A stretch of DNA of 53,980 nt, filler included, from Streblomastix strix (Eukaryota): assembly GCA_008636045.1 (NCBI GenBank). It is 2 parts of 2 records of this genome, joined end to end, with 100 filler letters (N's around TTAATTAATTAA, not from the genome) between each part and the next. Parts side by side here need not be neighbours in the genome. Positions count along the whole stretch, not along the records: positions 27,052 to 53,980 come from SNRW01000154.1; 1 more part is not named here. One strand, given 5' to 3'. The notes beneath the pieces were generated by a model, which saw nothing but the letters and a program-made list of their open reading frames with translations, did not search any database and was not told the origin of the DNA. Made by a program: the position numbers and the translations under genes. Below, one piece after another: positions 33,944-46,030 of the stretch; position 1 is the stretch's first letter; each line of letters opens with the position of its first letter.

Positions 33944-36900
33944 ATGAATATAAGACATTTAATAAAACGAATTGGAAAATATACATTTTCTAGTGATTTT
34001 GATGGTGGAAATATGATGGATGTACGGACTGCCAACAATCAAAATTTTGATGTCTATCCTGCAGCTGACTGTCAAGGCACACCTATGAATACTAACTATC
34101 GATATTGGTGGTGCTTCTCTATTCGTGGATTTTCATCTATTGATGAATAAATTGTGATCACTGTTCGTTATGTTTCTTCACAAGGTGCTCTATTTAGAAA
34201 TGGAATGCGCCCAACTTTTAGAATAGGGAATTTTGGACCATGGGAACGCATTTCTTCTCAAGTTACTGTAACAAATCATGAAAACTCAGCTTCGATTACA
34301 TTTATTGTTTCTATCAATTCAATTCTAACTTCTTTATTGCATCGACTTAGTTGGGCTGATTCTCTTTCTCTTATTCCTAACTCACCAATCTAGAAATAAT
34401 TTGAGAAAATCATTTGCCAGGAAGATTCACTTAATAAAGCAAAATATTCATTCTTTTCAGATTCACTTTCACCCATGCATAAACTCCATTTAATCACATA
34501 AATATTTCCTTGGATATCTTCAACTCCCCCAGAATATTTCCATTTTATTATTGAATAAGGTTTATTTGAATGCATTTAAAGGACTTATTCATCTATTTAC
34601 CCACTACCTCTTACAAATCAAAATGATTTCTATAATCCTCTTAATTCAAATGATGAATAAAATATTATGAATAATATGAATAGTAATGATAGATAATTAT
34701 GGATTAATCTTTGGAGACATTCCTTGTATTCATATAAAGAGATGTGGCTTATTTGGATGATGATGTGGGCACATTAACATCCTGCAATAGAAGCTCGTTG
34801 TGGGAAATAGAAGTTGGGAATTAATTGTTTTGTTGGAGGATCAGAAATTACACAAGGAAAGAAATTTGGAAGTTTAAAGAAGAATAAATAAGATTAAAAT
34901 ATTTAAACTAAATTATTAGAAAATCATTCATTAGTAACTGAATATCCATCATATTCATAATTTATATTTTAATCTACAAATCCTATTCAAGATGGTTTCT
35001 AAATTATTATTCCACCTTAATAGGCAAGAATCCTTTCCCCTATAATTCTTAACCAATCATCTTTATTCTCGTGTATGAATGAACCCCTTCCTTAATTCTT
35101 TTCAAAAATTGCATCTTAATAATCATAAAATATGATTCAATCTTTTTCTTCAATTTCTCGCTCTCCGATTTCAGCTTACAAATAAGAAAATAATTCATAA
35201 TTATTGGCTGACCATCACTAATTTCCAATATTTTACAACTTGAAAGACTAACCAACTAATAATTCACAAATTTCATCTCATAAACAACCTTCTTATAACA
35301 TTATTCCATAAAATTTATAATAATCATCAAATTCATTTACATCAAATAACATAAATTTCAATCAAAATATCAATTTAATTAAACCATGCAGTCCTTCTAT
35401 AAATAAAATTCAGAATTTATTTTCAAATTAATAAAAGGAGATTATTACAAATACAGATGAATAAGAAACATAATACAACAATACTTTAAATAGTAACAAT
35501 ATAATAAATTGTTAAAATGTGGTTGAATTATCTGATATCCCCATATTTTTTTCATTCTTTTCTTCATATGCATATTATGATGTTTAAAGAGATCTCGAAA
35601 TAATGGAAGAAATATTTAATGATAATGATTAGATAGATATTAATACTAAAAAAGAAAATATATTTGATAAATAAGATTAGGAAAATATTTTACATCCAAA
35701 ATATGCAAATTTTGCTCTTTTATCAAATTCATCAATCGAAAATGATAAACAAGAATAATAATAAAATATTTTCATACCTTTTCATAAAAGGATATATTTT
35801 CATTGAGAATTACTTTCCAGATCTTTAGAAGGTAGACGATTAGACATGATAACTATATCTTCATTCTATGGAATATCATCAAAGAGAGATGATCCAATTG
35901 CAGCATTATTATAATAAAAGAATGATTGTATAGAAATGAGTGAATAATAATATAATAATAATAATTAATATAGAGAATCGTAGTTAATAGAAGAATAATC
36001 AATTAATTAATAAAGAGCTCATTCATTTCCTCATAAACCGATTTATTTTGTAAGTGCAAGAGTGCATCCAGGAGAAATTCCTTCTTCATTTGTCCTTTCA
36101 GGTATTATAAGATTTGCTTTAAGATGTACAGATATTCGGAGCGTCTTATTTAGAGAAAGATATGTACTCAAAATAGTCCCATTAGTGAATCCAGATGGTG
36201 TTTATTGGGGCTTTTCTAGATCTGATACTTAAGGACAGAATTTAAATAGATGGTACGAGAGTGAATGAAGTAATGACAAGAAATTTAATGGTTACTCAAC
36301 TTTAGACAATAAATATTAAATTGGAAAAGATGAAAATATTGACAGTATAGAAGATAAAAATAAGATAAGAAAAATTAAATGTCCAACAATTTATGCAATT
36401 TAAGAAGCTATAAGATAATTTCATTTTCAAGATTAATAATTAAAATAATCAACATAAATAGCATTACATACATCAAAAGATCAAGAAAATAAGGATCAAA
36501 TAAATTCAATAACTCAAACAACCTCTTTACAAATAATAGACCCACTTTAGAATGATAACAAATCATATTCATAATCAATAACCTAAAAAACACTTGAAGA
36601 AGATGGTGAAGAAGAAGAAGGATTTTGTTTAATAAATAATCAATCCTTAATTTCAGATTCAGCAATTTCCGCCAATGCTCATATTGAATCAGCTTCAAAT
36701 AAATAGGATTAATATCATTAAATAACTTAATTACCTCCGAGAAGAATTGCATTTTATATTGATTTGCATGCCCATGTTTCAAAACGAGGAAGTTTTTTCT
36801 ATGGAATTTCTCATTAAGATGAAAAGAAATAAACTAATACAATATTTTACTCAATCCTAATGTCATTAAATACTCCATATTTTGATTATCCTGGATCACA

Positions 36901-43300: not shown

Positions 43301-46030
43301 GAAGCAGACATTGATTAGAATGAAAATGAAGATGATGATGAAGAGCGAATCTAAAGAGATCTCTAAGATCGTTTGATTGATTTACAGATCGATAAGACAA
43401 TTATTAATGAAGGGAATGGAGATGGAAATAATCTGGAAGTTGAAGAATAAAAAAAAGCTCCTTTGGGAAGCTCACTTTTAAAGAAAAGTTCGCGTGGAAA
43501 ATAAAAAGGGAAAGTTGGTCAGGTTAAAAGTTTCTTTTCAAAACCAAATAAATCACTTTCACCAAAACATGAAGGTATTTAGCCACTCAATACATTGATA
43601 TCACCACAGAAAGGAATTGCAAATTCAAAATCAAATTAATAATAATAACATTAACAAGGAATTCATCCAAGAAGGAAAAAAGCAGCATACAAAGGAGGAT
43701 TTGTTTTAGATGCTAAATCAGGATTCTACGATAATTATATCCTTTTATTAGACTTTAATTCACTGTATCCTTCGATTATACGTGAGAAAAATATATGTTT
43801 TACTACAATTCCTAGAGGAGAATATAAAGAAGAAGAAACATTGAATATTGCCATCTCAAATGATTAAACTGCTGTTCTTCCTTCAATTGTACGAAAGCTT
43901 ATTGAATAAAGAAAAGACGTTAAAGGAAGAATTAAAAACCTTTAAAAGAATTTATAAGGAAAAGATAATAATAAAAGTGATGAAGTTGCAATTGCTGAAG
44001 AGCGAATTGCTGTTTTAAATACAGAATAATTAGCTTATAAACTTGTTGCTAATAGTATGTATGGTTGTCTTGGATTTGAAGCAGGACGATTCTATGCAAA
44101 GAGATTAGCTCAGATGATTACATGGTATGGTAGAAAGCTACTTTCTGAAGCATGTGACATTGTAAAGAAACAGAATCATGAAGTCATTTATGGTGATACT
44201 GACTCTATAATGATATCAATTGTAGACAGGTCTTTATCAAAGGTTATTTTAATTGGAAATTAATTATGTAAATTAATTAACAAAGGCAAAGACTACCTGA
44301 AGATTGATATTGATGGTATATTTTCTTCACTTCTTTTGCTTAGAAAGAAAAAATATGCAGCAATGAAAATGTAAACAGATGTTAGTTTAGCCATTAACAG
44401 ACCAAAAGATGCCATATTCAAGATGGAAGTGAGAGGACTTGAGTTGGTTAGGCGTGATTGGTGTGGTCTTACTCACTAGGCTGAGGAATAACTGCTTAGA
44501 ATTATGCTTGGAAAAGATGGACCAAGCAAATTTGAGATAAATGTAACTCAGATTGAATCGTCACAATCTCAAATTTAGAATTCTGGATCAATTTCTTCTA
44601 ATGATGATAGTTATATTCTAGAATCAGAAGACAAACTTGAAGATGAATATTAGCACTCTGTTGGTGGGAGAGTTGAAATGTATCTTCGCAATTTGGCTGC
44701 TCATTTACGTGCTGGGGAAGGGAAAGTGAATGATTTTATTATAACCAAAGGAATTTTCAAGGATCCAAGTGAATATCCAAATGCAAATCATTAGCCGCAT
44801 GTTTTGGTTGCATTAGAAATGCGAGGTCTTGGTATGTCTGTTTAAGCAGGAATGCACATACCATATATAATCTGCAAAGGAGATGGTTAATGGGCTTCAA
44901 GGGTATAAAGAACAACTCATTATATTCATATATTCTATAATTCATTATATTCATATATTCTATAATTCATTATATTTGTTTGTTTTTCATAGGCTCATCA
45001 CCCATCTCTTGTTGAAGTAAAATTAAAAATATAATAATAAGAATAATTAGAAAGTGGAATGGCAATAGACAGAGATGATGATGCTCCTTAAACTTCTTCA
45101 GAAACACAGTCTAATATGGAAGGTAACATTGAAACCCAGAATTCAACAATTCAAACACCATTGAAGATTCTAGCAAATAAAGCTTAAAGAAAGGCTAAAT
45201 ATGAACCTGATATAGACTGGTATTTTGCATAGTAGATTCATCCAGCAGTACTCAGACTTTGTGAATGTGTTGAAGGAATGAATGCAATGGCTTTGGCTGA
45301 GTTCTTGGGTATGGATACAACTCGATATAGAGACACACGTAGAATTGATGGAAGTGGAGTTGGATCATAATTCTACAGAGGCCGCAGCTTTGGTGGTATT
45401 TTGTCTACTGATGTTCTTAATATGGGAGATAAATTCTCTAGTCTTTGCGCTGATCTATCTTTCAAATGCCCATTTTGTAGGACTTTGATTGTATTACCTC
45501 CTGTACGCAATTCACATGAGGAATTTGATCTTCGATGTCCTTCAGACACATGTAGACAATTATTAACATAACGTCATATACTTCCACACATACAAGTATT
45601 TGTTAGAGGATTATTAGCTGCTCATTTCAGTGGATCTCTCATTTGTGATGATCCTTCATGCCATTCAGTATTTGATACAGTTCGCTTATTGAACTCCAGA
45701 TGTCCTAATCCTGGATGCACAGGTCATTTGCATCTGAAGCCTGATGCTGAGACAGTTTATTGTCAGCTTGTATTTCTTAAGGAAATATTCACACCCCGAT
45801 CCTTCAAAAACGCCGCTTTTGGACATTTAGGTAATAAATATCTACATTATAAACTATATAACAAAACTCTTTTACATATTTAAATGTATTATTTATTTTC
45901 AGTACCTCATTGCTCAGGGACAAAGGAAGATGTGGAACTGATTCTAAAACACTTAGACACAACCCTAGCCCAATCAAGTTACAACAAAGTTGATCTTGGA
46001 GCTATTTTTTCACTTCGCAACTTAATATGA
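40327..46030 (+). CDS. POLA1: DNA polymerase alpha catalytic subunit (family B), multi-exon
   Basis: [57 protein letters not shown](TAA)[42 protein letters not shown](TAG TAG)IHP, and two C-terminal Cys clusters. Ends TGA 46028-46030. Confidence 0.96.

Follow-up and report, generated by a model that had tools for sequence, protein, structure and literature searches.

In-frame UGA codons that probably specify arginine in Streblomastix strix, an oxymonad in which UAA and UAG encode glutamine

Introduction

NCBI tables 27, 28 and 31 describe the context-dependent genetic codes of Condylostoma, of Parduczia and karyorelicts, and of Blastocrithidia, and U-to-C editing of mRNA occurs in the organelles of hornworts and ferns. 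A code closer to the one considered here was described by Chen et al. (2023) for seven spirotrich ciliates (including Sterkiella, Tetmemena, Stylonychia, Paraurostyla, Uroleptopsis and Uronychia) in which TAA, TAG and TGA are read as glutamine, glutamine and arginine (Q/Q/R) and TGA has a dual function (PMC10089648). In the oxymonad Streblomastix strix, UAA and UAG (UAR) encode glutamine as in NCBI table 6 (PMC13002328), a finding credited to Keeling and Leander (2003) both there and in PMC1501061. Here we analyse a stretch of 53,980 nucleotides from the S. strix assembly GCA_008636045.1 (the window; two parts joined by filler letters, with positions 27,052 to 53,980 coming from SNRW01000154.1), in which TGA occurs inside a gene for the cytosolic carboxypeptidase CCP5, inside a PPP-family phosphatase gene and inside a frame rich in glutamine, serine and asparagine (Q/S/N-rich). 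A preliminary description of this DNA had proposed that all three stop codons are read as their C-initial counterparts; our analysis leads us to favour a reading in which rare internal UGA codons specify arginine by a mechanism of their own while UGA continues to terminate translation.

Results

Internal TGA codons in three genes

Internal TGAs were sought by a codon-model scan in which TGA was scored as neutral, together with hand-built gene models. Codons were counted in eight gene models (7,895 codons); the PPP phosphatase was counted for its 5′ 549 codons only, and two small, partly modelled genes (near 40327 and at 25000–26500) lie outside the counts. We found seven internal TGAs, which fall in three of the eight models: three in CCP5, three in the Q/S/N-rich frame and one in the PPP phosphatase.

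33944..39958, plus strand: CCP5/AGBL5 cytosolic carboxypeptidase, 2,004 codons, three internal TGAs, terminal TGA at 39956
35804..35806, plus strand: internal TGA of CCP5 (IYFH-TGA-ELL), in a conserved arginine column
36266..36268, plus strand: internal TGA of CCP5 at an insertion edge, between the HPGE/NLNR and DLHAH/YTLE catalytic blocks
38252..38254, plus strand: internal TGA in the low-complexity Q/N/S-rich tail of CCP5
16202..20859, plus strand: model of a PPP-family Ser/Thr phosphatase with 15 GT-AG introns, its start not fixed and its 3′ end uncertain
16772..16774, plus strand: internal TGA of the PPP phosphatase, seven residues upstream of GDIHG
29615..32398, minus strand: Q/S/N-rich frame, 928 codons, three internal TGAs (32221, 31705 and 30898)

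Every conserved block of CCP5 lies in a single frame across 6 kb. The TGA at 35804 aligns without gaps to a column that is arginine in 117 of 120 homologues (mostly from animals), in 30 of the 36 homologues of a more diverse set, and in human CCP5 (PDB 8V3M); tryptophan occurs there in neither set. To this extent the assignment of TGA to arginine made in the preliminary description stands, although a rule covering every TGA codon is not borne out. We rejected an intron that skips 35804 because the homology is ungapped on both sides, and re-initiation after it because the catalytic blocks would remain split by the TGA at 36266. The latter codon faces a gap in 35 of the 36 diverse homologues and a proline column in the 120-homologue alignment; splicing of an atypical 45-nt GT-AG stretch, a candidate intron, could take it out of the message. 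No oxymonad CCP5 orthologue was present among the matches listed in the two homologue searches. We note that CCP5 also contains a TGA-free, in-frame insertion of ~400 codons (34318–35540) that separates the N-terminal from the catalytic domain, at a place where homologues have few residues.

After splicing of its 15 introns, the PPP phosphatase contains all catalytic motifs, and no second internal TGA is present in the full model; TGA 20072 falls within a modelled intron. The protein retains 153 of the 163 columns that are invariant among four oxymonad homologues, and over the catalytic blocks it is identical to that of Monocercomonoides exilis at 218 of 283 positions (77%). A HMMER search with the first exon returned 115 matches, of which 109 could be aligned at TGA 16772 and six lacked the motif; the query carried arginine at this position, the effect of which is negligible against scores of 102–217 bits. 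Arginine occupies the column in all six best matches (the named close matches being three from Blattamonas, Paratrimastix and a cluster with M. exilis), and the column is one of 13 arginine columns that are invariant in the four oxymonad homologues. Tryptophan is found at this column in none of the 109 homologues, and PDB phosphatases, with K, D, E, E and D, are uninformative. Here too we rejected an intron skipping the codon because of ungapped homology on both sides.

Both of the internal TGAs that can be aligned therefore fall on arginine columns, the one at 35804 having been picked by the preliminary description and the one at 16772 having been found independently of it. Random nonsense would place both on arginine with a probability of 0.007 (8% per site), which rises to 0.03, 0.08 or 0.17 if CGA mutates 5, 10 or 20 times faster. 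That internal TGAs stand on arginine columns of genes that look intact suggests that UGA is likely read as arginine. Two other candidates were set aside: a selenoprotein, because the alignable TGAs are on arginine rather than cysteine columns and no Rfam match in the window reaches the gathering score, and programmed readthrough at UGA-CUAG, because C follows none of the seven internal TGAs.

Recurrence of the TGAs and substitution patterns

DNA of the window was found in four sequencing runs (X1 to X4), three of which are termite gut metagenomes, and X2 comes from a study other than that of X1. Contigs from X2 cover 35699–35868 and 36142–36320, and in this second study both TGAs recur unchanged, with two and one other letters differing, respectively. 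All three of these differences are synonymous (p 0.01–0.03), and two of them are swaps between AGA and CGA. Across CCP5, 12 of the 17 substitutions from X2 to X4 are synonymous, against 21–32% under neutrality (p 2e-5 to 0.0013), as are 5 of the 6 that lie downstream of 35804; for comparison, 4 of 6 substitutions in contigs of DNA polymerase alpha (Pol alpha) are synonymous. Among the X3 pieces listed there is no long one over any TGA site, and this missing cover was not used as evidence.

TGA as a terminator

The remaining genes of the window that entered the counts, all without an internal TGA, are the following.

22100..22722, plus strand: gene that we take from its motifs to be RPL18, 185 aa, one intron, terminal TGA
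23319..24526, minus strand: presumably, from its motifs, a CaMK-like kinase, four introns, no internal TGA, terminal TGA
41105..46030, plus strand: DNA polymerase alpha, 1,611 codons, one intron (44903–44992), 73 TAA/TAG codons, terminal TGA at 46028
46182..47793, minus strand: model of a membrane-protein gene that has three introns and ends in TGA, with no TGA inside
48429..53930, minus strand: frame of a SET-domain methyltransferase, 1,833 codons, free of internal TGA

TGA is the terminal codon of six models, namely RPL18, the kinase, CCP5, Pol alpha, the membrane-protein gene and the SET frame. In Pol alpha it coincides with the C-terminus of orthologues, and in the SET frame it lies directly 3′ of a Cys-rich motif that we take to be the post-SET C-terminus of SET1 proteins. 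The five genes without an internal TGA total 4,415 codons and contain 22 CGA codons, 11 of which are in Pol alpha. Over all eight models, seven internal TGAs compare with 330 standard arginine codons, among them 187 AGA and 37 CGA, and the spread of the seven among genes shows no significant clumping (p 0.12 by length, 0.05 by arginine codons). The base at +4 does not separate internal TGAs (T, G and five A) from terminal ones (three A, two T and G).

TAA and TAG as glutamine

45230..45235, plus strand: TAG TAG (AQQIHP) in Pol alpha, two invariant glutamine columns

The ten homologues aligned with the spliced Pol alpha model, of which those of M. exilis (61%) and Blattamonas nauphoetae (54%) are the closest, all have glutamine at TAG 45230, TAG 45233 and TAA 44027, and this bears out the reading of the TAG pair as glutamine in the preliminary description. 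Eight TAA/TAG codons of Pol alpha lie on columns conserved in at least 8 of the 10 homologues, six of these columns being glutamine, one glutamate and one lysine; in the PPP phosphatase, 5 of 17 TAA/TAG codons (low-complexity parts included) are on glutamine where two oxymonads agree. The alignments thus confirm for the window the glutamine code already known for Streblomastix. Glutamine is written TAA 485 times, CAA 122, TAG 91 and CAG 41, TAA and TAG together making up 576 of 739 codons. All four glutamines of RPL18 are CAG, with no TAA or TAG, a hint from a very small sample of avoidance in highly expressed genes.

The Q/S/N-rich frame and decayed sequence

The Q/S/N-rich frame contains no frameshift and had no family match. 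A fourth TGA (29617) was taken as its end, and none of its TGAs can be aligned. Part of it is directly duplicated (28919–29223 and 31694–31990; 89% identical, with 21 mismatches and 6 gap openings), and both copies keep the TGA of 31705. The region 32460–32900 (minus strand), a candidate upstream exon or a separate frame, has two more in-frame TGAs, which were not counted, and no Pfam match in the part scanned.

The window is spliceosomal, eukaryotic DNA with a GC content of 26.4%, and no tRNA gene was found in it. Its first 15 kb are rich in transposons and, unlike the genes, not depleted in CpG (observed/expected 1.05). A MULE transposase remnant (4200–4769, minus strand) contains a TGA at what we take to be the Trp/Phe position of a C-x-H motif. 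A fragment whose motifs resemble those of the C-terminal half of a PPP phosphatase (150–1190, minus strand) gave no Pfam match and looks decayed; it has a TGA ahead of the region with the motifs. Further sequences are an open reading frame of repeats with a 99-bp period (1677–2588, plus strand), a TmcB TPR-like fragment (2631–3440, plus strand; weak Pfam match, E 0.0015) and an inverted, perfect 102-bp duplicate (26508–26609 and 26850–26951) that ends at N gaps and is probably an assembly artefact.

Discussion

On these alignments and counts we lean towards the reading that rare internal UGA codons specify arginine in a context-dependent manner while UGA remains the terminator, a proposal that is unproven and new for the lineage. 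If UGA is arginine inside genes and a stop at their ends, there is likely no codon that this organism uses exclusively for termination. With a shade less confidence we also think it probable that Streblomastix-type oxymonads do without a dedicated stop codon, UAA and UAG being glutamine and UGA being arginine within genes and a stop at their ends.

A number of observations weigh against this. A residue can be assigned at two of the seven internal TGAs only. Over all 109 matches the PPP phosphatase column is Q in 36, R in 22 and S in 13, and the TGA sites compared between studies are those of CCP5 at 35804 and 36266. The contigs are shallow (depth 2–5, and ~20 for X3): whereas the criterion for Q/Q/R fixation is more than 90% of reads at a depth above 100, we have two sites in X2 contigs at a depth of 2.6–2.9. 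The 3,444 codons of Pol alpha and SET1 include no internal TGA, and the clumping of TGAs among genes is borderline (p 0.05–0.12). Neighbour composition over the seven sites is weakly in favour of glutamine (+1.9) over arginine (−4.4 ln units). Of 63 near-invariant columns, 9 are not kept in CCP5, a divergence equal to that of the trypanosomatid homologues, and an X3 contig (33906–35570) carries three frame-shifting single-base insertions, after 33971, 34405 and 35103. Each of the insertions lengthens a homopolymer, and 5 of the 6 X3 substitutions in CCP5 are synonymous; the insertions may be sequencing errors or mark a frameshifted dead allele. The genes are CpG-poor (observed/expected 0.35–0.73), which favours CGA-to-TGA nonsense. 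A DDE_1-like transposase remnant of ~300 codons (13185–14096, minus strand; weak Pfam match, E 0.035), which is probably dead, has four in-frame TGAs and no frameshift, so that an unbroken frame with TGA need not belong to a working gene, and this weakens the argument from missing frameshifts; two of these TGAs are in arginine-like contexts and one is at a position that we take to be Leu/Cys. Finally, the argument draws on DNA and assembled contigs, and its signs of selection are indirect.

Several of these points would suit the strongest competing explanation, which we nevertheless consider unlikely: that the plain table 6 code applies and that the internal TGAs arose as nonsense mutations, either in genes that died recently or in dead alleles that functional copies shelter, with CGA-to-TGA changes favoured. 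The CpG-poor genes, the X3 insertions in CCP5 and the absence of internal TGA from Pol alpha and SET1 all fit with it, as does the amount of decayed material in the window, including the MULE and DDE remnants with TGA, one of which presumably stands at a tryptophan position. Moreover, the low-complexity TGA contexts resemble former glutamines, and TAA-to-TGA is the commonest route (34–57%). It accords poorly, however, with a PPP phosphatase that keeps its invariant columns and 15 splice-site pairs, with arginine at both assignable sites (p 0.007–0.17 over the models tried), and with TGAs that are common to two studies and have synonymous neighbouring differences only. In addition, decay would be expected to introduce frameshifts, since the duplicated segment shows 6 gap openings alongside 21 mismatches; for CCP5 the argument from their absence has a model p of 0.001–0.09.

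It is improbable, in our estimate, that UGA is read through without specificity for arginine, yielding tryptophan, cysteine or a near-cognate mixture, as in yeast. Near-cognate reading of UGA inserts Trp, Arg or Cys (PMC7764779), and in Condylostoma the known context-dependent meaning of UGA is tryptophan (PMC10089648); yet tryptophan is absent from both alignable columns, and neighbour composition disfavours tryptophan (−9.4) and cysteine (−6.1) most. A basal leak would be insufficient, because the leaky C at +4 is absent and the catalytic domain of CCP5 requires readthrough twice, or once should the 45-nt intron be genuine.

Even less probable is the single rule of the preliminary description, by which U in the first position would be read as C, through G36:U1 pairing and weak competition by eRF1 at all three stops. 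The three assignments themselves are strengthened, with 16772 as a second arginine site; Gln, Gln and Arg are indeed the C-initial meanings, and mispairing at position 1 is documented at stops (PMC7764779, PMC13192750). The common mechanism is not supported. T accounts for 80% of TAA/CAA, 69% of TAG/CAG and 16% of TGA/CGA (Fisher p 6e-18), and TGA remains a terminator. At conserved columns, other T-initial codons are read as written, in Pol alpha at 29 positions against 1 with the C-initial and 2 with another meaning, and in CCP5 at 17 against 2 and 4. Furthermore, other lineages with UAR as glutamine, including Tetrahymena, Condylostoma and Spironucleus, have a cognate tRNA-Gln(CUA) (PMC5304391, PMC11687900).

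U-to-C editing of mRNA at the three stops, which the preliminary description had also suggested, would yield exactly Gln/Gln/Arg but is scarcely credible, given that Streblomastix mRNAs were picked from expressed sequence tags by in-frame TAA/TAG, which the complementary DNAs (cDNAs) keep (PMC1501061), that the Streblomastix transcriptome was translated with the Hexamita code (PMC13002328), that an X3 contig, possibly a transcript, has T at all 34 TAA/TAG first positions covered, and that Pol alpha mismatches mendable by T-to-C are not in excess (2 of 18 single-base routes). Editing confined to UGA sites is conceivable. An RNA origin of X3 is hinted at by its CCP5 contig, which begins 38 nt before the ATG, and by a record of 1,485 nt, a length that fits the spliced membrane-gene model (1,445 nt) with a leader of 40 nt. 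Taken together, the asymmetric usage, the T-initial codons read as written and the cDNAs with TAA/TAG make both editing and a general reading of U as C unlikely. Of the options put forward earlier, an anticodon change, which tRNA-Gln is known to have undergone in other organisms, or near-cognate reading of UGA alone, may apply. Scans of metagenomes with CCP5 and RPL18 found no DNA of a relative.

If rare internal UGA is arginine, we infer two separate mechanisms for the Gln and Arg reassignments. A dedicated tRNA-Gln(UUA/CUA) would read UAA and UAG, and eRF1 would ignore both, as in Tetrahymena and hexamitids. Limited to UGA, eRF1 would win near the 3′ end of the mRNA, whereas far from it an Arg-charged tRNA would prevail frequently enough for the protein to be finished; the distance to the poly(A) tail perhaps decides between the two, as has been suggested for ciliates (PMC10089648). 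As decoder we would favour a tRNA-Arg(UCA) of low abundance, which is a single base away from tRNA-Arg(UCG) or (UCU), the alternative being near-cognate mispairing at position 1 of UGA. Since AGA far outnumbers CGA, the decoder need not come from tRNA-Arg(UCG). A weak decoder would account for the rarity of UGA.

In the literature searched, UGA as arginine is claimed for some ciliates only, from sequence alone, and we found no paper on UGA as a sense codon in oxymonads, though a remark within the key Streblomastix papers may exist. If the reading is correct, a Q/Q/R code would be known outside ciliates for the first time, and it would have been overlooked in a lineage already sequenced. Perhaps a third of genes (3 of 8 here) would be split in the current annotation, and oxymonad gene sets predicted with table 6 would need re-annotation. 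A case that arose independently in Metamonada would show that the last stop tends toward ambiguity after UAA and UAG have been lost as stops, and that arginine is a repeatable outcome for UGA. It would also allow the question of how a single codon can terminate translation and specify an amino acid to be tested in a second supergroup.

The locus resembles what is described for S. strix under table 6 in its TAA/TAG glutamines, its terminal TGAs and its termite gut origin, as well as in GC content (26.6% for S. strix; PMC10703272) and in RPL18 (184 aa, one intron; PMC1501061). It differs in that table 6 has TGA never inside working genes, whereas here, if the three genes work, three of eight carry one or more. 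With Condylostoma, Parduczia and karyorelicts, and Blastocrithidia it would share a codon that is both stop and sense, but there UGA is tryptophan, read by tRNA-Trp, and here it falls on arginine columns and is much rarer. Editing in hornworts and ferns would likewise restore Gln and Arg at apparent stops, but it is organellar and would mend other codons too; this is not observed here, and Streblomastix cDNAs keep TAA/TAG. The closest likeness is to the spirotrich Q/Q/R code, with TAA/TAG as common glutamine codons and rarer internal TGAs on arginine. The spirotrich example is a tubulin ligase gene and ours a tubulin deglutamylase gene, CCP5; spirotrich genes that contain internal stops have the lower GC (PMC10089648), and CCP5 and the Q/S/N-rich frame have the lowest GC of our eight models. 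The spirotrich claim has hundreds of sites with read support, arginine being deduced from sequence, against two assignable sites here, and the present case, being in a metamonad, would be of independent origin.

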